From a virus (taxonomy: Duplodnaviria; Caudoviricetes): 64,000 bases of DNA. The position numbers were made by a program, and so were the translations under genes. Below the pieces are notes generated by a model. That model did not search any database. It saw only the letters and a program-made list of their open reading frames with translations, and was not told where the DNA came from. Below, in pieces: positions 12,157-39,485 of the stretch (positions are counted from its first letter, which is position 1; the number at the start of each line of letters is the position of its first letter). The stretch covers positions 96,001 to 160,000 of the IMG/VR virus record IMGVR_UViG_3300013121_000023. One strand, 5' to 3'.

Positions 12157-12165
12157 GTCATAAGA
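12157..12165 (+). promoter_or_regulatory. CATAAGA candidate phage promoter element (first of ~13 copies)
   Basis: intergenic, strand-matched copies ahead of non-structural transcription units. Confidence 0.55.
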
Positions 12166-14366: not shown

Positions 14367-14794
14367 ACATAGTAGCGTTTATTGTGGGCGACACACTAGT
14401 AATAGTTTCAGAAGGTGGGGATCTTTTCAGGGTTGACATGTGTAGCGCTCCTATTAGACAACGTATAGACCAGGTTGATAGCTTGGACGAGTTCGCATCG
14501 ATTATTTATGCAAACTCATTTGAGGCTGCGCCGAGTGCAAACGAGTCAATAGAGCTTATACGGTCTGCCGTGAACAATCCATGTCTACCTATGTGGTTTG
14601 TACAAGATCCTTTTGTGGTGTACGTACTACTGTGCCTGCCTTCGATTACGTGTTTCAATAAGGAGATTATTAAGTCGATAATGATGAATCAGGTAATCAA
14701 CATAACTCCATCTATTATAAGTATACTTCCAGAGTATATACAAATGTACATAATAGATCTAATGCGTACATCTATGCGCCTAAAAGAGGCATAA
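14363..14794 (+). CDS. hypothetical protein (distant APEY family)
   Basis: NNPCLPMWF..LPEYI. Confidence 0.6.
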   Translation: MNIVAFIVGDTLVIVSEGGDLFRVDMCSAPIRQRIDQVDSLDEFASIIYANSFEAAPSANESIELIRSAVNNPCLPMWFVQDPFVVYVLLCLPSITCFNKEIIKSIMMNQVINITPSIISILPEYIQMYIIDLMRTSMRLKEA

Positions 14795-14799
14795 GAACC

Positions 14800-15276
14800 A
14801 TGAATAAAACCGTACTAGAAAGAGCAATGCAGATTCTGGGCAATGCAGATGGTACTGATTTCGTAAGCAGGGTTAATGAAGCGTGTGATTTCATTGCGGA
14901 GAACATTACGGTAGCAACCGACATGTACACTATGGTACATGTATGTACTACGTGTGCATATATCGCTGGCACAATGAAGGTAGGCTACGGTAGCGATACT
15001 TTGGTACGCCTTATACGTAGGGAGTTTCTTAGAGGACTATACAGGATGCCTCAGTTTCCTATATGGTTTCTCGAAGACGAGAAGCTCTGCCTATCTTTCA
15101 TAACTCACATATGTGGGTGTAACTCTGAAGCAGACCACATTGTATCGTTGCTGTGCCTAGATAGAATTGGGGAACGTCCTGTATTTTTGGAAGTGGAGGC
15201 ACCGATTTACGTTAAGGAGTACGTCATAAAAAGAGCATCCATATACGGCTATGATGGGTGCCATATGAACGTTTAG
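14800..15276 (+). CDS. hypothetical protein (distant APEY family)
   Basis: PQFPIWF..EAPIYV. Confidence 0.6.
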   Translation: MNKTVLERAMQILGNADGTDFVSRVNEACDFIAENITVATDMYTMVHVCTTCAYIAGTMKVGYGSDTLVRLIRREFLRGLYRMPQFPIWFLEDEKLCLSFITHICGCNSEADHIVSLLCLDRIGERPVFLEVEAPIYVKEYVIKRASIYGYDGCHMNV

Positions 15277-18286: not shown

Positions 18287-19426
18287 GTGAACATGTCGTA
18301 TTTCTTCACAAAAGACGATCTCTCGGTATCATACGGAACTAATCTGTATAACTGTTTGTACGATAATGACTTTTGGTCCAGCCTGTTGTCCAGAGTCTCG
18401 CTCAGACTAGGAATGTCTGCTTACGTAGGAAATGTTGGCGACGCTAGATCTAAAATATCGAAAGATAACTTCGATAAGCTAGTGTCTATTCTTAAAGAGA
18501 GTTGTTTTACTAAAGTCTACTCAAGAGGTGATTATCCGTCTTGTGAAGAGGTATATCTATCCGTAGCTGGATACGTGATTGTAGACGTATTCCAGGATAA
18601 CCATACATTCATATATGTAGGAATGTTCGATAGGGAGTCTGTTAGTAAGCTTAAATCCAAAATAGAGCATCTTGTAGAAAAAGTACCTGAAAATAAAGTT
18701 GATAACATACCGCGGGTACACGTCGTAGTTCAAACATCTAGCGGCCTAGACACTAGGGAATTTAATAGTGTCTATTGCAAGCTAGTTCGGGATAACTATG
18801 ACGCGCGCGTTCTTTCGCAGTGGGACAACGTTATTTCTGAGTTCAAGAAATCCGAGCCTGTGGCTAGAATGGCCATACTGAATGGCCCGCCAGGCACCGG
18901 TAAAACACATCTTATAAAGTCCATGCTGTTTGAAGATGGATTGTTTTGCCTTCTTCTGCCAAATGATTTGTTTGTAAACGTGGCCTCACCGGCCTTCCTC
19001 AACTTCTTGATAAATACAGCAGGGAGAATTTCACAGAAGTTGGTTCTTATACTTGAGGACGCCGATAGTCTATTGGAGGAGAGGTCCAACAAAGACGACG
19101 TTAATCCATTGGCGACGCTGCTCAATATGGCAGACGGAATATTGGGTAGAATATTGGATGTTCGTATGATTTTGACTACGAATAGAAAAGATCAAACGTA
19201 TGACGCCGCTACCCTGAGAGCTGGTAGGCTTCTTCACAACATAAACGTAGATAAGTTGGAAAAGAATGGTGTACTCAAAGCCTTTAGAAACATACTGGCT
19301 GACAATGGGATGTCTGAGAATGACATTCATTGCGAACTAGAAAAATTCGCGGCGGATCGCATGTCCATTGCCGATGTATATGCGATGGCGTTTGATGTGC
19401 TCAACAAGAGAAGAGAAGCAAAATGA
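18287..19426 (+). CDS. AAA+ ATPase
   Basis: GPPGTGKT, ILEDAD, TTN, LRAGRL. Confidence 0.9.
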   Translation: MNMSYFFTKDDLSVSYGTNLYNCLYDNDFWSSLLSRVSLRLGMSAYVGNVGDARSKISKDNFDKLVSILKESCFTKVYSRGDYPSCEEVYLSVAGYVIVDVFQDNHTFIYVGMFDRESVSKLKSKIEHLVEKVPENKVDNIPRVHVVVQTSSGLDTREFNSVYCKLVRDNYDARVLSQWDNVISEFKKSEPVARMAILNGPPGTGKTHLIKSMLFEDGLFCLLLPNDLFVNVASPAFLNFLINTAGRISQKLVLILEDADSLLEERSNKDDVNPLATLLNMADGILGRILDVRMILTTNRKDQTYDAATLRAGRLLHNINVDKLEKNGVLKAFRNILADNGMSENDIHCELEKFAADRMSIADVYAMAFDVLNKRREAK

Positions 19427-20505
19427 TAGATCTAGGACCGATCAAAAACTACCTGTCTTTGGTTTGTACGGCAGACGATGCCGGTATCACATACGACAAA
19501 CTATTGAATGCGCTAACAATATCGCAAATGTTGTCGTATAAAGAGAGCTACGTAAGAGTACTGCGCTTGTCAAAGGACATGCTTTCACCTGACGGTAACA
19601 GGGTAATAAGTAAAAGAAACCTAGTAAAGTTGGAGAAGCAACTGTCTGCAAAGTTCTATCTAATGCAGCATGCAGGTAATAGAAAGTATTACGTATCCAA
19701 GGATGGGTGCGGTTTTCTGATGGTAGATGCTGGCGAGTACTTGTCTATAGTGGGGGCCGAACTGTGGTTCAGTAATCTACCAGGTGGGTCAGGTACTGAT
19801 GCAATTAAAAGCGCGCTAAGCCTCAGTAGATTGGAGGCAAGACCTACTGCGTGCGTCCACATGCTAGTAGCGCAGGGCGGTATTTTGACAGCCCGCCCAG
19901 TGTTCATAAAGGAAAGCAAGTTTGTAGTCTCTAACTACTCTTCAACGGTTAGGAACAAATGGGCGCACGCCGTATCAGCTATGTGTAGCGCTGAGCCACC
20001 AGCTAGACTGACTATACTGAATGGTCCGCCAGGAACTGGCAAGACACACTTGATAAAATCACTTCTGAGTAATAAGGATGTCAGTTGTTTGTTCATACCT
20101 AATGGTTTGTTTCCTAAGTTGGCCGATCCATCATTCATAGGTGCAGTCACGGACTTCTGCCGATCTACCGATCTACCTGTGCTTATTATGGAAGATGCCG
20201 ATGATGTATTGAGTTCCAGAGAAGAGGCAGGGACAGTGAACCCGTTGGCTACACTGCTTAATATGACAGATGGAATACTTGGTGTGATGCTGAACATTCG
20301 TGTGATTTTGACCACGAACAGAAAGGACCAATCTCTGGACAAAGCTTTGATCAGAGAGGGTCGTCTTCTAGAGCACATAGAGGTGGGGTATCTTTCTCCG
20401 AGCGAGGCTGTAGAGTGCGCCAAAGGGCTTGGCGCTTCTATAAAGAAGCCTTCAAACAGTATGCCTTTGTGTGATGTGTATGCTGCGATTAAGCAAAAGA
20501 TTTAG
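19423..20505 (+). CDS. AAA+ ATPase (tandem paralogue)
   Basis: GPPGTGKT, IMEDAD, TTN, IREGRL. Confidence 0.9.
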   Translation: MIDLGPIKNYLSLVCTADDAGITYDKLLNALTISQMLSYKESYVRVLRLSKDMLSPDGNRVISKRNLVKLEKQLSAKFYLMQHAGNRKYYVSKDGCGFLMVDAGEYLSIVGAELWFSNLPGGSGTDAIKSALSLSRLEARPTACVHMLVAQGGILTARPVFIKESKFVVSNYSSTVRNKWAHAVSAMCSAEPPARLTILNGPPGTGKTHLIKSLLSNKDVSCLFIPNGLFPKLADPSFIGAVTDFCRSTDLPVLIMEDADDVLSSREEAGTVNPLATLLNMTDGILGVMLNIRVILTTNRKDQSLDKALIREGRLLEHIEVGYLSPSEAVECAKGLGASIKKPSNSMPLCDVYAAIKQKI

Positions 20506-20524
20506 GGTTTAAGTCATAAGAATT

Positions 20525-21033
20525 ATGAGATGTTTAATTAGAGACCCCTCCAAAGAGGGTCTGCCTACAAACCCGGGCAGATGAAAACATAAAAGTGGGT
20601 TCTCAGTTAATGCGACATTAACTGAGTGTCTTGAAACCAAGTCCATAGTATGGACTCTGGGATGTGCCCAGCACATATACCCAGCACATATCGCGGCTAG
20701 CGCCCCGCGATTGGCTTGCGGCAAGGCAAGGTGTCAGTCACTCAAGGTAAGGTGTCGTTGCTACACGCCACCGAGTGACGACGTATAGGGTTTCAGTGTG
20801 AATCCCAGTGGGGGATAGCACGAAGTAGCATTTACAGCCCTATATTTCAAGCCTCCGCAATGTCATAGAAAGCAAGCATACAGCTAGAACGTTCATTCGC
20901 GAAGCTCGCTTTTCTTGTTCGGCGAGTTAGCACAGAACGATGCTGTGTGTTTGAGCCGTAGCGCAGCGGCGTAGGATATATTTTATCTGTGTGTGTGTGT
21001 GTGGGCTGCCGGAATAACCGGCAGCCTTTTTTT
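20525..21033 (+). ncRNA. candidate large structured ncRNA (~500 nt)
   Basis: no credible ORF; more than ten stems; starts after a CATAAGA motif, ends in a strong terminator. Confidence 0.6.
21003..21033 (+). terminator. intrinsic terminator
   Basis: GGGCTGCCGG-AATAA-CCGGCAGCCT plus T-tract. Confidence 0.85.
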
Positions 21034-21051
21034 AGTACCGATGGAGAAGCC

Positions 21052-22050
21052 ATGAAGATGAATATTTTGGGCCAGGAACGTTGTCTGTATAACGTACCCT
21101 ATCACATAGGGTTCAACACTATAAAATTTGTAAGGTCTTTGTACGCATGGCTCAGTGATTACGATCGTAAGCTAACGTGGATGACCGTAAGTTCACCGCG
21201 TCAATCAGCAGAATATTATCACTCCGTAGCTTTGGACAATGGTTATAAAGAAATATGGATGGCAGAGACGGGACTTACACGTTACGAACTAACTGCTCTT
21301 TTGCAATGGATGAGCATACTTCAGCGCGTAGTATTTGAAAAAATATCTCATTTTCCAGCTAGGGCGCTTTTCAGAAGGAATGAAGGTAAATTGGAGGTTC
21401 ACCCAGCAGCTATAGTAGGCGACTTCAATAAGGTATCTAAGTTTTCTCCAACCTATCGTAATTACGTTTCTATTGGAGTTGATACCCCATATGAAATTAT
21501 TGATATCTACGGCATACATGCACTTGTCGATAATTCTGATGAAGATAAACCATTTCACATGTTCCCTGTGGGAGCTAATGAATCCATTGCAAGTATATTC
21601 AGGTCTAACGATCAGTTTAAATTGACTGTCACTAGTAAGACTGAACTCATTAGCGGTATATACGAATCTGAAGCGGCTGCTAATCGTAATAAGATACACG
21701 CTGAAGGAAATAGAATTGCCAAGGCTTGCGTAGAAGATAAAGTGGCGATCAAAACAGATATTCTCATTGCTAGCCTAGAAACCTGTTTCATGTCTTTTTC
21801 GTGTATGGAGAGAGCAATAGCCGCCGTACTGTCTGACCCGGGGTATGAACAGCACAAGTCATCAGTTATAAACGTCATCCAAACAATCATATCTTGCTAC
21901 ATGGGACATATGTATTGGAGAGAGCAGTTTGATTTCTACATGGCCAGTAAATACGCTGTGCCGCAGATGTACTCTATAGATATGTCTTATGGTGATTTTG
22001 ACTTGGGTAAGCTTATAGATTATTGGAGGCCCTACATCGGTACGAAGTAG
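21052..22050 (+). CDS. hypothetical protein
   Basis: GGAG SD, ATG 21052; ends TAG TAA. Confidence 0.7.
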   Translation: MKMNILGQERCLYNVPYHIGFNTIKFVRSLYAWLSDYDRKLTWMTVSSPRQSAEYYHSVALDNGYKEIWMAETGLTRYELTALLQWMSILQRVVFEKISHFPARALFRRNEGKLEVHPAAIVGDFNKVSKFSPTYRNYVSIGVDTPYEIIDIYGIHALVDNSDEDKPFHMFPVGANESIASIFRSNDQFKLTVTSKTELISGIYESEAAANRNKIHAEGNRIAKACVEDKVAIKTDILIASLETCFMSFSCMERAIAAVLSDPGYEQHKSSVINVIQTIISCYMGHMYWREQFDFYMASKYAVPQMYSIDMSYGDFDLGKLIDYWRPYIGTK

Positions 22051-27393: not shown

Positions 27394-27406
27394 GAAAGAT
27401 TGTTTG

Positions 27407-27479
27407 TAGGACGCCCGGGACTTGAACCCGGAACCTGCGGATTAAAAGTCCGCTGCTCTACCTATTGAGCTAGCGACCC
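27407..27479 (-). tRNA. tRNA-Lys(UUU)
   Basis: cloverleaf; GCGGA-CTTTTAA-TCCGC; GGTTCAAGTCC T loop. Confidence 0.9.
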
Positions 27480-27490
27480 GAAGGAGAACC

Positions 27491-27787
27491 ATGACAACAG
27501 CAGCGCGCATGAGGGATTTGGTGGGCGAATATACCAAAAAAGTCATTAGTGAAAATGAGGAACATATAAATGAAAACTTGCTACCGATATTCCTTAAAGA
27601 CTTGTATTCTTGCATAGAATCAGCTGCATCTAAGGGACAGCGCACATACCAACATGCTATAAATCTTACAACCTTGAAGGTGCTGCATTTGGTTGTTCCA
27701 CAATTGAGAGATCGAGGTTATTTGGTAGAGTATATTACTAGTAGTACTACACAGCATCTTATGTACATGAACGTATCTTGGTCATTA
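27491..27787 (+). CDS. hypothetical protein ending at TTA
   Basis: AAGGAG SD; ...NVSWS then TTA 27785-27787 before the shared terminator. Confidence 0.6.
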
Positions 27788-27791
27788 CTTG

Positions 27792-27827
27792 GTAGCTAAA
27801 AAAGAAGAGAGCGAAAGCTCTCTTCTT
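27792..27827. terminator. bidirectional terminator
   Basis: AAAGAAGAGAGC-GAAA-GCTCTCTTCTTT between convergent genes. Confidence 0.8.
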
Positions 27828-28205
27828 TAAATACTTGAATCTATGCGCCTCAATGTATGAGGCCATTACCTCTGCAATGTAGTCGGGGGCAATTCCCCGA
27901 AGTGCATTGCGACTGAGCACTTTTGCGGTACCCTTCCCCCACGGTACCTTCACTGCCTCAATATATGGTTTGCCCTCCCCTTCTGGATGGCGCATTGTTA
28001 GCAAGTGTCTCGCTGCCTGCATCAGCAGGGAGCTTACCTCCTTCGGCTCCTCCAGCCAAAGGATGTGGATTACTGGGTGGTTCAGCACCACCCTCAATTG
28101 CTTTATGGTTTCTTCATTTGCAATATCAGTGTACCTAGTGCCCTCATGTACGAATGTCCTAATGTCCAACAGGGCCTTCCGAAGGCCCTCTATGTTTTCG
28201 TACAT
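27828..28205 (-). CDS. hypothetical protein (APEY family) ending at TTA
   Basis: AGGAGG SD; LNHPVIHILW..IAPDYI; TTA 27830-27828 abuts the terminator. Confidence 0.65.
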
Positions 28206-28318
28206 AGTACCTCCTTTCATATATCTTATGCCATTTTTACGAATAAATTAAGGTACACATAAGTAATAATCGAGGGGCTAAAGAAATGGAAGGATAGCTC
28301 CATCTCTAATAAGTGTTG

Positions 28319-28390
28319 TGCCCCAGAGAGGAATCGAACCTCCTTTAGCCTCCTTGTAAGGGAGGTGCCGGACCAGCTGGCTCCTGGGGC
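28319..28390 (-). tRNA. tRNA-Val(UAC), non-canonical D arm
   Basis: GCCCCAG/CTGGGGC acceptor; CCTCC-CTTACAA-GGAGG; GGTTCGATTCC. Confidence 0.8.
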
Positions 28391-28395
28391 AACTG

Positions 28396-28686
28396 TAACT
28401 TAGATATATCCAAAGAAAGGGAAATCAGCATACCAATGAATTGGTCTCTTCCTTTTTCTACTTCTGTTATGAATTCCGAAACCAATTTGGTTTCGGTCGT
28501 GCCATTTGACTCTATTGTCATGTTCATGTTATGAAAACATGACGATGCTGAATCTGGCCATATTGTGTGTGATACTTTATTAAACCGTTTGTGGAATAGA
28601 TGCCACGCATCTCTAAAGCAGTCTGTTACATAGACCATAACCACCAGTTCTTTTCTTTCTGTGTCCTTTATGAAGTAAACGTTCAT
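28396..28686 (-). CDS. hypothetical protein ending at TTA
   Basis: TTA 28398-28396 ends the ORF 5 nt before tRNA-Val instead of running through it. Confidence 0.6.
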
Positions 28687-28722
28687 TCTTCATTCCTTTC
28701 ATTTTTACTCATATAGTAACAG

Positions 28723-28796
28723 TGGGACCACTCGGATTCGAACCGAGAACATCCCGGTTATGAGCCGGGGGCTCTGACCGATTGAGCTATAGTCCC
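28723..28796 (-). tRNA. tRNA-CAU (Ile2-like or elongator Met)
   Basis: CCCGG-CTCATAA-CCGGG; paired G1-C72 so not initiator. Confidence 0.85.
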
Positions 28797-28875
28797 AAAC
28801 AAGCCGTTTTTAAATAAACGGCAAGGATTTATTGCATGACGTGGCCTCAGCCCGCCTTATCTATGCAATACATCG

Positions 28876-28947
28876 AGCCCACTATGGGATTTGAACCCAT
28901 GACCTACGGTTTACAAAACCGTTGCTCTACCACTGAGCTATGTGGGC
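28876..28947 (-). tRNA. tRNA-Thr(UGU)
   Basis: ACGGT-TTTGTAA-ACCGT. Confidence 0.9.
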
Positions 28948-28950
28948 AGG

Positions 28951-29060
28951 AGCGACAGGCCCGAGTCGAACGGGCGACCAACGGAAAACCGCTGCTCTAC
29001 GGGGCCATCACCAGACAGAACGTTACTTGTCTGGCTTGTGACCTACTGAGCTACTGTCGC
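28951..29060 (-). ncRNA. tRNA-like RNA with D-loop insertion and no anticodon loop
   Basis: GCGACAG/CTGTCGC acceptor, intact T arm, ~45-nt hairpin in D loop, anticodon arm reduced to GCGG-TTTT-CCGT. Confidence 0.7.
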
Positions 29061-29083
29061 AAAAAAGGCTTATATAGCCTTTG

Positions 29084-29155
29084 TGGATCGTCTAGGAATT
29101 GAACCTAGGCACAGCGCTTATAAGACGCCGCAGGGCAACCAGCCCGTCACGATCC
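29084..29155 (-). tRNA. tRNA-Ile(UAU), non-canonical D arm
   Basis: GGATCGT/ACGATCC; GGCGT-CTTATAA-GCGCT; GGTTCAATTCC. Confidence 0.8.
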
Positions 29156-29234
29156 ATAAGAGGTACACCGGAGACCCGATGAAGCCTTCCGCCAGCATGG
29201 TAGGAAGAAGGAGTGTCACCACGATGTACCTCGG

Positions 29235-29306
29235 CATCCCTGACAGGATTTGAACCTGTGACCCGGAGATTAGAAATCTCCTGCTCTTCCGCTGAGCTAC
29301 AGGGAC
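29235..29306 (-). tRNA. tRNA-Arg(UCU)
   Basis: GGAGA-TTTCTAA-TCTCC. Confidence 0.9.
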
Positions 29307-29544
29307 ATCTACGCCTTCACTCATATTTCTTATTGCGCTATTTATTTGATTTTTTCTTACGGTAGCTAAAAATAGATAGGGTTTGCTGATATAGGAGTAA
29401 GTTGGCCCGCCGTCATGATCGCCGTTATACCGGATGGAGTCTGGAGTACAGCTACTATCAACCGGGCCGAGAAGATAGATTTACAACGAACTGGTGTGGT
29501 TCGTATGACTAACGGTCTTTCGGGGCGCCTCATCAAGACCGCTG

Positions 29545-29623
29545 TGCTCTTGGCAGGAGTCGAACCTGCAAATAATAAAGCCGCTTTTGAAACGGCCGCG
29601 TCTGCCTATTTCGCCACAAGAGC
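29545..29623 (-). tRNA. tRNA-Leu(CAA), short variable region
   Basis: GCCGT-TTCAAAA-GCGGC; Leu-type GGCGAAATAGGCAGACGC D arm. Confidence 0.85.
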
Positions 29624-29682
29624 TTTGGCCGTCACCCCCCACACCAACTACTAGAGCTGTGTGGGGGGGGGGTTTCGTAGGT

Positions 29683-29781
29683 AGACCCCGAGTTAGAAAG
29701 CCGTTCTGCATCTTCAGTATTCGGCGAAGAAAAAGAGAGTTGCACTCTTTTCGGGCGTGTATGGCTTTCTTGGTGGGGTCT
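29683..29781 (-). ncRNA. Y RNA-like element 2 (T-arm containing)
   Basis: terminal stem AGACCCC/GGGGTCT and AGAAAGCC/GGCTTTCT; internal AAGAG-TGCAACT-CTCTT; shares motifs with 29871-30016. Confidence 0.5.
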
Positions 29782-29865
29782 TGGAAAGCGAAGAGGAATT
29801 GAACCTCTTATCTCCATTTCGGTAGTTGGCCTAGATGGATGGTTTTTGCCTTTAACCTACGCTTC
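29782..29865 (-). ncRNA. tRNA-like RNA with 17-nt anticodon loop
   Basis: D stem GGTT/AACC; TCCAT-(17 nt)-ATGGA; AGAGG-TTCAATT-CCTCT; ends CCA. Confidence 0.6.
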
Positions 29866-29870
29866 ATAAT

Positions 29871-30016
29871 GAGACCCGAGTTACTGCACCATTGTCCTTG
29901 TTAGGACTGGTTTTGGTTACCAGTTGCCGACCACCGGCACCTACCCCTTATACGGGGTAGCTAGGATTCGAACCTAGTTTTTGGGGTTGCGTGTAGGATG
30001 CAGTTGTTTGGGTCTC
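29871..30016 (-). ncRNA. circularly permuted tRNA-like RNA inside a long closing stem (Y RNA-like)
   Basis: order T arm, closed acceptor hairpin, D arm, anticodon arm; ends paired GAGACCC/GGGTCTC and ACTGCA/TGCAGT. Confidence 0.7.
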
Positions 30017-30018
30017 GG

Positions 30019-30100
30019 TGCTGAGAGAGGGACTCGAACCCTCACGGTTTTACCCGCCGGTACCTAAAACCGGGGCGTCTACCTATTCCGCCACCTCAGC
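30019..30100 (-). tRNA. tRNA-Leu(UAG)
   Basis: CCGGT-TTTAGGT-ACCGG; long variable arm. Confidence 0.9.
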
Positions 30101-30174
30101 AAGAAAGGGTGTAAGTAACGTGTGTAGGGACGAACGGCGAAGAACATCCAAGTACTCACGTTAAGCACACCCTG

Positions 30175-30253
30175 TGGGGTAGATAGGGATCGCACCTATC
30201 AGCTCTGGGCAGCGGTTTTACAGACCGCCTGAAGCACTAGCTTCGTCTACCCC
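30175..30253 (-). tRNA. tRNA-Tyr(GUA), atypical D and T loops
   Basis: GGGGTAG/CTACCCC; GCGGT-CTGTAAA-ACCGC; T loop TGCGATC. Confidence 0.75.
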
Positions 30254-30350
30254 TGGCGCGCTGGCTTTCATAGAACGTTGCTGTACAGCAGCTACAGCTA
30301 ACTACGAGCAGAGTCGTAACACTCTGACTCAAGCCGCGCAATCATTTTTA

Positions 30351-35238: not shown

Positions 35239-35376
35239 TAACTCTTGCAGCAGATAGCCGCCGTCTTCTTGAACTAGGTCGTCTGTATTTTCACACAGAA
35301 TATGTCCGCCCTCATCATCTTCATCTCGTACTTGGTACGGGCGGGCATGTAGGTGGGAATTCGTATGTATCGGCAT
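35239..35376 (-). CDS. 45-aa peptide starting and ending at TTA junctions
   Basis: MPIHTN...ILCENTDDLVQEDGGYLLQE then TTA 35241-35239, 4 nt before next ATG. Confidence 0.55.
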
Positions 35377-37952
35377 AACCAGTCATCCTTCTTTTGGGGC
35401 GCGCTCCAACCATCGCCTTCTACAGACTCTTCTAGCTTAGATACCTGTTTGCGCAATCTACGCAACTTAGATATATCGGAGTCTTCTTTCCATTTCTTAG
35501 CTGCATCCAACTGAGACAGGGCCATCCTGCTTATGTCTCTATCCCATACTGCGTTCGATACTGATTTGCCCAACAAACCAGCTATCTGTGTACCTGCCAA
35601 TAGAGTTGCTAGTCCCCTAGTTTTTGGATTTTCAAATCCTCTTACGTAGGCTGGTACGGTCATCAGGGCTGATAGGCCGGCTTTTGGAGCGTTCTCTCTC
35701 AGATCTTCCACTGTTTGCCCTAGAAGGGATCTTCTAGCTACCTCTTCAAGAGCGTTTGCTTTAGCCGGGCTTTTATTAGCCTCAACCGCCAGATTTTTTA
35801 TTAGACTAGGTGCGTAGCTCTCCGCCATAAGACCACCTAGAGCACCAGCACCAGCACCAGCTAGTAGGCTAGTAGCGGTTGGTACAAATAGAGACGATCT
35901 TACGGTTCGTTCATCGACGTTTCTGTTGAGAAGATTGGGTAGCAGCGCACCGCTAAACATCCCCACTACTGGGTTTATAGCGCTAAAACCAACACGACCG
36001 GCACTGGCTAGTTGTAGGCGCAGTTTATTTGCCGCCAATTCGTTCTTACCCTCATCTGTCATCTTAAAGTTGGCGCTACCGGCTGTCTTTAGGAAACCTA
36101 TAGACTTTTTGAAATCGTCCATAGGAACTGAATCTATACGGCCTATTATGGTGTCTTTGTAGGCAGGACTACTGTGAGCTAGAAACATCTTCCTGGCTTC
36201 TCCCTCAGAGTTAAATCCTAGCATTACTTTGTTTTCGTCGAACTTGCCGTTCAACATTTGCTTTATGATGAATGCTTTATCAGCATTTTTGTTCGGGCCT
36301 AGATATACGTCTGTCTCCTCTCCGTCTTTGTCTTTCGTGCCAGGTATAAAGCCGTAGTCTGTCTTGTACTTTCTGGTCCAGGCAGGCAGACCGTTCTTAC
36401 CGTCAAACTTCTGTAGGAATCCCTTTGGTCTATCTACATGGACAGGAATTCCTTGAAATTCAGTTTTCTTGTGTACCTTGTCTGACGCTGTTTTCTCGTG
36501 CTGCGGAAGAAGATCTCTGAATTGCTTTATCAGGTCTTCTTTCTTTTGCGACATATCTGACAAGTACTCGTCAACTGCCTTATCAGGAGTTCTCTTTAGC
36601 CACTTTTCATTGAACCTGGTTATCAAACCTTTTGGCCGAACACCTAGGTAGTGCTCGATCAACACTTTTCTTTCTTCTGGGGGAAGATCTGCGTGGCTGC
36701 CGTATCTGGCCGCTCTACCTTCTAGTTGCTTCAGCTTTTCTCTGTTCCAGTGTGGGTCTAGTATCTGTACCAACCTGGTACCTTTCAGGTCCAACCCCTC
36801 ACCGCCAGCAGATGACACCAACAGTGCTCGCAGCTTACCCTCGTTGTAATCACGCACCATTTGGTCTCGTTTACTGTGCGCTATATCACCCGTAAACTCA
36901 CCGAAAGGTACACCAGCTTCTTGTAGCTTTGCTTTGTACGGGTTTATGCCCGATTCCAGCCAGTTCGAGTAAACCAGAGCCTTCGCCCTAGGGTTTTCAT
37001 CGATCATTTTCTTTAGTGTTTCGAAGGCTTTGTCTATCTTAGGCTGGTGTATGACAGCATCTTCCTTGGAAAGCCCCGCTGTGGTGTTCACAGCTTGTCT
37101 GGCCGAACCAAGAAAGTTGTTCATCATGGCAGACTCCTGCTTGCTGGGAGGCAGGCCTCTTTTGACCTTTGCGGCCACCCATGGGGGCGCTTGACCCATG
37201 AGGGTGTCATATAGCTTCAGCTGGTCAGGAGTAAGTTCTACCTGTACCTGCTTGGTCTCCACATCGGGAAAGTTGTCTTTTGTCCCCGGATGGTAGTCAA
37301 CCCATTTACTGAACTTCTGTTTCAGTTCTGGTGCTTTTCTGTCGTAAAGAACCTGAATCGTTCCAGGCGTAGCTTGGTTTATATGCTTGTCCCAAAAAGA
37401 CGGCTTCACTACCTTTTCAGTTATGTACGCAGATTCGAAGTCTTTTCTGTCGTGCGGCAGTATCTTTGCATTAGCGGCAAGGTTTATGAGTGGAGCTATA
37501 TCAGCTGGATGATTGTAGAAAGGGCTACCAGTAAGCAGAAGTCTCTTATCCGCCTGTGCCCCCAAGTTTTTTATTGCTCGAAAGGTAGCGCTACCTATGT
37601 CCCTAGCTCTGTGCGCTTCGTCCACAATCATAAGTGGGTTTTCTTCTGTGGTTCCTTTCGCAGCTAGATTCTGAATGCTCTCTATATGAGCCGGCTGCTT
37701 ATGCCCCTTCAGATGCTTGGCCCTCTCTTTAGCGTAGTTGTCCCTAAGCGCGGCTGGAACAACAACGGTGCTAGGTACCCCCAGAGCATCTTGTGCAGCT
37801 ATGCTTGAAAGAGTCTTACCGCTACCCAGACCATGAACAACCAACAACCCAGGTTGGTCTTCTTTCTGAATGCGATCTACTACACGTTGTTGATGAGGCA
37901 ACAACGGTGTTTTTACCTCAGCTATCTTTAGCAAATCGTCGAGTAGTCCCAT
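35376..37952 (-). CDS. SNF2-family helicase fused to pyrophosphatase-like and membrane domains, ending at TTA
   Basis: HGLGSGKT, DEAH, LTGSP, GGEGLDL, QLEGRAAR; YGFIPGTKDKDGEETDVYLG..DENKVMLGF; hydrophobic C-terminus. Confidence 0.85.
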
Positions 37953-37974
37953 AAAGGCATCATACCCGATTTGA

Positions 37975-38016
37975 GTAGCTAAAAAACACAAAGTTATGTT
38001 TCAAACTTTGTGTCAA
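37975..38016 (-). terminator. intrinsic terminator
   Basis: ACACAAAGTT..AACTTTGTGT plus TTTTTTAGCTA on minus strand. Confidence 0.7.
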
Positions 38017-39394: not shown

Positions 39395-39413
39395 CTTTTT
39401 AGCGTTTCGTTAG

Positions 39414-39485
39414 CGCGGGTAACGGGACTTGAACCCGTACATAAGGATTTAGAATCCTATGCTCTACCAGTTGAGCTATACCCAC
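39414..39485 (-). tRNA. amber suppressor tRNA (anticodon CUA)
   Basis: GTGGGTA/TACCCGC; TAGCTCAACTGGTAGAGCA; TAGGA-TTCTAAA-TCCTT; GGTTCAAGTCC. Confidence 0.85.

Follow-up and report, generated by a model that had tools for sequence, protein, structure and literature searches.

Genomic context of the gap

The window, a stretch of 64,000 nt, comprises bases 96001–160000 of a phage genome that is complete at 177,132 bp and has direct terminal repeats. The phage originates from sewage sludge, and its DNA was also found in metagenomes of activated sludge, digesters and soil, ten studies in all. The standard genetic code suits the genome, and its gene density is very high. A gene-free gap at positions 20506–21051 separates an AAA ATPase gene (19423–20505, ending in the stop codon TAG) from an orphan open reading frame (ORF; 21052–22050). 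Stretches of at least 200 nt without any ORF of at least 70 aa occur four times in the 177-kb genome; this gap is one of them, and the tRNA cluster accounts for two. Comparison with GenBank phages by blastn revealed no match to the gap. Coding by read-through of the TAG codon was ruled out as the content of the gap, because it would extend the ATPase gene by 29 codons only, and a pseudogene remnant was likewise ruled out by tblastn and tblastx, neither of which gave any gene match.

Upstream of the gap, two tandem paralogues encode Bcs1-like AAA+ ATPases on the + strand. Paralogue 1 (P0004, called as 337 aa) occupies 18287–19426 and paralogue 2 (P0002, 360 aa) occupies 19423–20505; both match the Pfam family AAA (PF00004, with E-values of 7e-13 and 2e-14, respectively), and the two proteins are 39% identical. 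In a Foldseek comparison of a structural model of paralogue 2, the N-terminal domain of which was modelled at low confidence, the top PDB matches were Bcs1 and YjoB (E-values from 8e-14 to 1e-12); a PDB profile search of the protein gave matches to Cdc48, p97 and Rpt proteins. The ATPase linked to the gap belongs to the classic-clade AAA+ proteins and is of the Bcs1/YjoB type. Bcs1-like ATPases are widespread in jumbo phages, and the only role proposed for them is in assembly or translocation (PMC7824862). No close relative of either gene neighbouring the gap was found in IMG/VR or among GenBank phages, and a profile search of 1.84 billion protein representatives retrieved no ATPase closer than about 190 bits, compared with about 550 bits for the self-match.

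Downstream, the orphan ORF on the + strand encodes 332 aa (263 aa if translation starts at 21259, as in the public gene call). Among 5.8 billion proteins it matched only itself, and a weak match to deaminases stayed below threshold. A PTH2 gene is located two genes upstream and the tRNA cluster 7 kb downstream, and distant members of the ATPase family adjoin genes for RNA ligase, RtcB, a CCA-adding enzyme, RlaP or DNA ligase. As far as gene order can tell, these neighbourhoods hint at a setting of translation rescue or RNA repair; searches of the window phage genome for RtcB, the RNA_ligase family PF09414 and reverse transcriptase gave no match.

Predicted transcription signals, evidence of expression, and folding

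The preliminary description had read the gap as a non-coding RNA candidate of about 500 nt with a promoter motif and a terminator of its own, and both signals were recovered in our analysis. A promoter-like motif, GTCATAAGAATTATGA, opens the gap at 20513–20528 on the + strand and is recurrent in the genome: the pattern CATAAGAANNATG has seven copies against about 0.1 expected, most of them preceding genes, and when one-mismatch relatives of the motif (GNCATAAGAA) are included, many genes are preceded by it on their own strand. Judged from its sequence and distribution, this pre-gene motif is a candidate promoter. For at least one gene (motif at 14790, gene start at 14800), the start codon is the motif's own ATG. 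This double use suggests that transcripts begin at the A of the motif, which would place the 5′ end of the RNA near 20525, the start taken in the preliminary description. The gap is ended by a strong one-way intrinsic terminator (21003–21033), present on the + strand only, in which a stem at 21003–21027 of 10 pairs (8 of them G-C; pair probability 0.99) with a 5-nt loop is followed by seven T residues. From motif to terminator, the predicted transcript would span 20525–21033 on the + strand (about 509 nt), its ends being inferred from these two signals. The next start codon, at 21052, follows the terminator after 18 nt and has a GGAG ribosome-binding site ahead of it; no promoter motif was seen between this ATG and the terminator.

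Evidence of expression came from one study, an activated-sludge metatranscriptome, in which a 461-nt contig covers 20538–20973 and continues into the (TG)n tract; the contig could be placed only to 20973 because the low-complexity tract 20974–21013 was skipped in placement. It begins at about 20535 and is not joined to the ATPase gene, whereas a contig from a DNA run does bridge 20396–20546. The depth of the RNA contig was 6.4, compared with 2–2.7 for fragments of the flanking genes, and one DNA run was also deeper over the gap than over its flanks (9.5 versus 5.5–6.1). A second RNA run covered the downstream gene only and not the gap, at a depth (2–3) too low to weigh for or against transcription. 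RNA-seq had been named as a check on the candidate; the contig over 20538–20973 agrees with a separate transcript, but weakly, since assembled contigs give neither the ends nor the strand nor the level of a discrete transcript.

All of the stems listed in the preliminary description were found either in the minimum free energy (MFE) fold of the + strand or as alternatives to it, mostly with pair probabilities of 0.75–1.0. The folding energy of the gap is −214.7 kcal/mol on the + strand (z = −8.8 against 100 dinucleotide shuffles) and −186.4 kcal/mol on the − strand (z = −5.2), a difference of 28 kcal/mol in favour of the + strand, whose MFE fold has 190 pairs, 22 of them G-U. As a control, random 547-nt windows of the same genome (n = 27) gave a mean z of −2.3 (SD 1.7, minimum −5.7); by the control's own procedure the target reached −6.0, i.e., about 2 SD past the genome background. 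When 300-nt sliding windows were regressed on G+C content, the region ranked 23rd to 130th of 1615. The gap is more structured than most of the genome and is no wild outlier, a signal that is real but modest, and because the genome outfolds its shuffles almost everywhere, thermodynamics alone is insufficient for the claim of a structured RNA. The earlier view of a non-coding, structured gap in a gene-dense genome holds, in that the gap contains no ORF of at least 70 aa and has a fold on the + strand.

According to the MFE fold and the pair probabilities, the + strand RNA would begin with a 5′ series of six hairpins (20541–20711), which includes a perfect 10–11-bp stem at 20602–20626 and a tandem 13-nt repeat, CCCAGCACATAT(A/C), at 20667–20692. 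A core domain (20712–20865), described below, is followed by a 3′ domain (20873–20970) composed of a long interrupted hairpin at 20873–20953 and a small hairpin at 20955–20970, with pair probabilities of 0.79–0.99. Adjoining the terminator is a (TG)8 tract (20988–21003), which in the MFE fold pairs with the CACAUAUAC/GCACAU repeat at 20672–20689. Comparison with a strain from a soil metagenome revealed 2 changes in 510 nt of the gap; the flanking genes carry 9 changes over 735 nt and 6 over 1047 nt, so the gap evolves no faster than coding sequence. Both changes keep pairing on the + strand: G20714A turns a G-U into an A-U pair, and C20739U turns a C-G into a U-G pair in arm A of the core, a change that would break the corresponding pairing on the − strand.

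A core shared with a second phage lineage

The closest relative of the upstream ATPase outside its own genome is P0003 (45% identity), which sits on the contigs L006 and L007 of another phage lineage. Other proteins of the L006 lineage are about 48–54% identical to those of the window genome, and the gene order differs; the window phage carries two tandem ATPase paralogues and L006 a single copy. Directly after the P0003 gene lies a 749-nt gene-free gap. The two gaps are unalignable save for one collinear core (window 20712–20865, L006 3141–3304), so that the conserved share is only about 150 of about 500 nt; the 5′ hairpin series is lineage-specific, with no sequence match in the L006 gap, and the 3′ domain is absent from L006 as conserved sequence. 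Within the core, three blocks are invariant and occur in the same order: block 1, GTCGTTGCTACACGCC (16 nt; window 20754–20769 on the + strand, L006 3175–3190), block 2, TATAGGGT (8 nt; window 20784–20791, + strand), and block 3, CGAAGTAGCA (10 nt; window 20821–20830 on the + strand, L006 3242–3251), which is followed by CCCTA in both gaps. Blocks 1 and 3 are separated by the same distance, 51 nt, in the window and in L006, and the 16-mer of block 1, taken alone, has a blastn E-value of 8e-5.

On the + strand, the core is predicted to form a closing helix, P0 (20712–20727 with 20851–20865), that encloses two arms. P0 consists of UUGCGG/CCGCAA plus flanking pairs in the window and of GGUUCCC/GGGAACU in L006. 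Arm A (20733–20782) is built from P1 (window GUCACUC/GAGUGAC, L006 GCGGUU/AGCCGC) and P2 (window GGU..GGUGU/ACGCC.ACC, L006 GC.GCGU/ACGC.GC), the outer part of P2 being GGU/ACC in the window versus GC/GC in L006, and is capped by a 9-nt loop, CGUUGCUAC (20756–20764), that is identical in both. Arm B (20783–20845), which holds the blocks at 20784–20791 and 20821–20830, comprises P3 (window UAUAGGG/CCCUAUA, L006 UAGGGU/ACCCUA), P3b (UUUC/GAAG and CUUC/GAAG) and P4 (AUCCC/GGGAU and CUCC/GGAG). Between the blocks, P1, P2 and P4 have altered sequence and kept pairing in the two sequences compared, and three G-U pairs of one sequence correspond to G-C or A-U pairs in the other. When the arm A loop was kept unpaired, its flanks paired better than shuffled ones, far better in the window (equalled by 0 of 2000 shuffles) and weakly so in L006 (p = 0.037); the same kind of comparison for the P4 inserts was marginal (p of about 0.1, L006).

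The arm A loop (UGCUAC) is complementary to a single-stranded segment of arm B, GUAGCA (20825–20830). The complementarity is 6 bp long in the window (duplex energy −8.8 kcal/mol) and 8 bp long in L006 (−10.6 kcal/mol), and the chance of at least 6 complementary bases between two such blocks is about 0.011. This complementarity suggests that loop and strand may pair as a pseudoknot; it could equally represent a contact between RNA copies, and because the paired bases never vary, the pseudoknot stays a prediction. In L006 the palindromic CCCUAUAGGG can instead pair with an upstream repeat (probability 0.94), so the core model is not unique in that lineage.

Collection of homologues with a covariation test had also been suggested as a check. 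It yielded the core of the second lineage with its re-pairing helices, and the covariation is thin and pairwise only, because all eight L006-type contigs (the P0003 cluster) carry identical gaps and the distinct sequences total two. A covariance model built from a single sequence (R1) retrieved only itself and failed to align L006, with filters off too, and the core was compared by hand rather than through a two-sequence model because MAFFT misaligns the 3′ strand of P2. The L006 gap contains a 14-nt direct repeat, and about 50 nt separate its closing terminator-like hairpin from the gene that follows; no promoter-like motif was found between the P0003 gene and the core. The neighbourhood is otherwise rearranged: the orphan ORF does not stand beside the RNA in L006, and the gene after the L006 gap matches the window genome at 61–66 kb.

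A third lineage was sought by exact-pattern scans for the invariant blocks, and none emerged from IMG/VR, JGI metagenomes or GTDB genomes. Three scans of IMG/VR gave 0, 0 and 120 matches, the 120 by chance; the JGI metagenome scan gave 14 matches, all coding or chance; and the GTDB genome scans gave none and then six chance matches. These scans require exact blocks, and diverged homologues would escape them. Two relatives identified through their DNA polymerase (G001 and G002) are without the ATPase and without the RNA, their only match being to the (TG)n tract, and the more distant ATPase homologues (P0006–P0009, P0019, P0031 and P0032) have no comparable gap in their context. As far as exact-block scans reach, the family appears to be rare.

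Nature and possible role of the proposed RNA

The earlier reading of the gap as a non-coding RNA gains support from the structured + strand, the promoter-like motif, the terminator, the core in a second lineage and the RNA contig. The explanation that we favour, and hold tentatively, is a new stand-alone structured RNA with a functional, conserved junction core that travels with a Bcs1-like ATPase gene. The locus would produce a folded non-coding RNA of about 510 nt from the + strand (about 20525 to 21033) by its own transcription, starting at the phage-specific promoter-like motif and stopping at the strong intrinsic terminator. Its functional centre would be the core of about 150 nt at 20712–20865, in which the closing helix joins the two arms, and the arm A loop CGUUGCUAC together with GUAGCA of arm B may either lock the junction as a pseudoknot or join RNA copies. 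The lineage-specific hairpins flanking the core would probably serve stability or spacing. Because the RNA is co-inherited with the gene for a Bcs1-like AAA+ ATPase, action in trans seems most likely, with the RNA serving the pathway of the ATPase as a stable scaffold, a ligand or a decoy; we infer both this mode of action and any link to the ATPase that goes beyond adjacency in the two lineages.

A cis-acting 5′ leader or attenuator, in which the terminator gates the downstream gene and the core senses a ligand, a protein or tRNA or acts like put, is possible if unlikely. The order of elements (motif, structured RNA, terminator, 18 nt, GGAG, ATG, with no promoter motif in between) is that of a leader, and in L006, too, a terminator-like hairpin closes the gap, about 50 nt ahead of the following gene. 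However, the downstream genes of the two lineages are unrelated, the 332-aa orphan standing against a protein of 1333 aa, the homologue of which is encoded 40 kb away in the window genome, and the conserved neighbour is the upstream ATPase gene. In addition, the terminator follows the core at a distance of 140–250 nt and is separated from it by non-conserved domains, inspection of the sequence revealed no antiterminator partner for the 5′ half of the terminator, and no riboswitch, T-box or leader family in Rfam was matched. The linkage to the upstream gene could alternatively mean that the gap is the 3′ untranslated region of the ATPase mRNA, stabilising or processing this mRNA or binding the ATPase for autoregulation, and it does follow the ATPase stop codon directly, on the same strand, in both lineages, with no promoter-like motif seen between gene and core in L006. 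We nevertheless consider this distinctly improbable, as a recurrent pre-gene motif stands between the stop codon and the first hairpin in the window, the RNA contig starts at about 20535 unjoined to the ATPase gene where a DNA-run contig bridges 20396–20546, and a junction core with invariant blocks of up to 16 nt far exceeds known stabilising 3′ ends in elaboration.

Explanations that do not involve a functional RNA fare worse still. That the gap is fortuitous spacer, made up of chance hairpins or terminator relics and similar to L006 only as a remnant of shared ancestry, is very unlikely: the whole genome outfolds its shuffles, with the target about 2 SD beyond, and in the scans made the family was seen in two lineages only, but 16-, 8- and 10-nt blocks are identical, with their spacing kept, between gaps that are otherwise unalignable and whose flanking proteins have diverged to 45% identity. 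The segments between these blocks still pair, the gap diverges among strains no faster than its coding flanks, and a gap this large is rare in a gene-dense genome. An element acting at the DNA level (a replication origin, or a site of single-strand initiation, packaging or recombination) would account for the many inverted repeats, the tandem 13-nt repeat (14-nt in L006), an AT-rich patch and the (TG)8 tract, and re-pairing helices would equally preserve DNA hairpins. Against such an element, to which we give slight credence, the replication genes lie 15–35 kb off on the other strand, and the cumulative GC skew turns near 28–30 kb, away from the gap; moreover, the helices use G-U pairs, the + strand folds much better than the −, and the promoter-like motif, the one-way terminator and the presence in an RNA library fit transcription.

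A divergent member of a known family (ROOL, GOLLD, tmRNA, RNase P, group I or II intron, pRNA or Y RNA) would suit the ROOL-range size, the phage host and the nearby tRNA and PTH2 genes, and has next to no probability in view of the model searches. In Rfam 15, cmscan at the gathering threshold gave no match in the window, and all 4227 models at E ≤ 10 gave only terminator-driven chance matches in the gap and its surroundings (20300–21250), both cores and the L006 gap. ROOL (RF03087) and GOLLD (RF01998) were unmatched both at the gathering threshold in the window and at E ≤ 10 in the gap and L006, as was the phi29 pRNA model (RF00044) at E ≤ 10, and the Rfam models for RNase P RNA, group I and II introns, 6S RNA, Y RNA and tmRNA gave no match either; ARAGORN found tRNAs only. 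The preliminary description had seen no hallmarks of tmRNA, RNase P or introns and had assigned no class, and these searches are in line with it on each point. On the basis of the negative Rfam and ARAGORN results, the RNA is not ROOL, GOLLD, tmRNA, RNase P, an intron, pRNA, Y RNA or a known riboswitch.

Several known systems nonetheless resemble the RNA in part. ROOL, GOLLD and OLE are self-assembling RNA architectures. Like ROOL and GOLLD, the present RNA is hundreds of nucleotides long, multi-domain and phage-borne, theirs being stand-alone genes in tRNA-rich genomes. Copies of ROOL and GOLLD assemble by RNA-RNA contacts, and the complementary invariant blocks described here could allow the same. 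These two large ornate RNAs of phages and prophages have been visualised as multimers by cryo-EM (bioRxiv 10.1101/2024.12.08.627333). In contrast to them, conservation here is confined to a core of about 150 nt, the linkage is to an AAA+ ATPase, the family spans two lineages, and multimers are hypothetical. The locus resembles riboswitch and T-box leaders and HK022 put in its layout, with a promoter-like motif first, a structured RNA next and an intrinsic terminator last, just ahead of a gene, and its core, like many aptamers, is a predicted junction in which a loop contacts a strand. In phage HK022, the put RNAs modify RNA polymerase, causing antitermination. The locus differs from all of these leaders in that the core is far from the terminator, the conserved neighbour is upstream and the downstream genes are unrelated. 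Similarly, Y RNAs with Ro60/Rsr in RNA-repair operons are structured RNAs among translation-rescue or RNA-repair genes, but no Y RNA or tRNA-like module was detected here, size and fold differ, and the window phage genome gave no RtcB or PF09414 match.

The pRNA of phi29 contains a three-way junction, and its two complementary loops link one copy to the next in a ring that docks an ATPase. Here, likewise, two invariant segments of the predicted junction core are complementary to each other, and the gene lies beside an ATPase gene. Unlike the phi29 case, the neighbouring ATPase is Bcs1/YjoB-like and no packaging ATPase, the RNA is three times longer, the phage is not phi29-like, its genome being 177 kb with direct terminal repeats, and the complementarity may be intramolecular. 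By analogy, we raise as a long shot that the RNA is a dedicated subunit or substrate of the Bcs1-like AAA+ protein, with segments that pair between copies to give a ring or cage fitting the ATPase oligomer. If so, Bcs1-type ATPases would have their first RNA partner, and phages would have invented an RNA-ATPase assembly a second time, independently.

Large structured RNAs of unknown function are rare, and new classes have tended to reveal new biochemistry. The RNA described here is a credible new family, absent from Rfam 15, that rests on two sequences. If it proves to be merely a lineage-restricted leader or 3′ untranslated region, its interest would be local only. The compact core with its invariant, self-complementary segments offers a clear target for mutagenesis, and if the RNA and the ATPase cooperate, the RNA could make the role of the Bcs1-like ATPases of phages testable.

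RNA-repair genes beside distant relatives of the ATPase

Genes for RNA repair directly adjoin distant relatives of the Bcs1-like ATPase encoded immediately upstream of the predicted RNA, a recurring neighbourhood of which, to our knowledge, no description exists. In L012:3331-8754, the ATPase relative lies beside RlaP, a CCA-adding enzyme and RtcB, and an RNA ligase is found directly upstream of the relative both in L015:4384-6077 and in the contig carrying P0031.

Gene-free gaps and tRNA genes

The gap homologous to that of the predicted RNA in the second phage lineage (L006:2788-3536) contains a 9-codon mini-ORF preceded by a strong AAGGAGG site, as well as a tandem 14-nt repeat (two copies of ATAGGCGAAGCCCT). 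Its terminator and another on the same contig, near L006:400-437, have the tail TCTTTAGCCCC in common. Outside the window, the phage genome has a second gene-free gap of ~430 nt (G000:C1:54600-55031), which is rich in hairpins and flanked by two copies of GTAGCTAAAAAGAAAG; it may be a regulatory region or encode a further structured RNA. Nine clustered tRNA genes occupy window positions 27406-30253 (minus strand), where the tRNAs were the sole Rfam matches at the gathering threshold; gene-free spacers were observed at 29103-29414 and 29803-30347. A further tRNA, at 39413-39485 (minus strand), has the anticodon CUA, that of an amber suppressor, and is labelled tRNA-Pyl by ARAGORN. The standard code otherwise reads well in this genome, and TAG is the stop codon of the ATPase gene adjoining the predicted RNA.

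Other proteins in the window

The orphan ORF directly downstream of the RNA gap (21052-22050, plus strand) matched the cytidine-deaminase zinc site at sub-threshold level only, with HAE kept and C-x5-C in place of the usual PCxxC; its public gene call begins at 21259, 69 codons downstream. On the minus strand, 35274-37991 encodes a 905-aa fusion of an SNF2-type helicase and an inorganic pyrophosphatase (InPase, PF18823) domain.

A recurrent motif upstream of genes

Throughout the genome, the motif GNCATAAGAANNATG(A) was found repeatedly upstream of genes, for example at window positions 12157, 14788, 20513, 42021 (minus strand) and 62752 (minus strand), and CATAAGAANNATG occurs in seven exact copies in the whole genome, versus ~0.1 expected. 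As the ATG within the motif is the start codon of at least one gene, the sequence suggests a phage-specific promoter that would yield leaderless transcripts.
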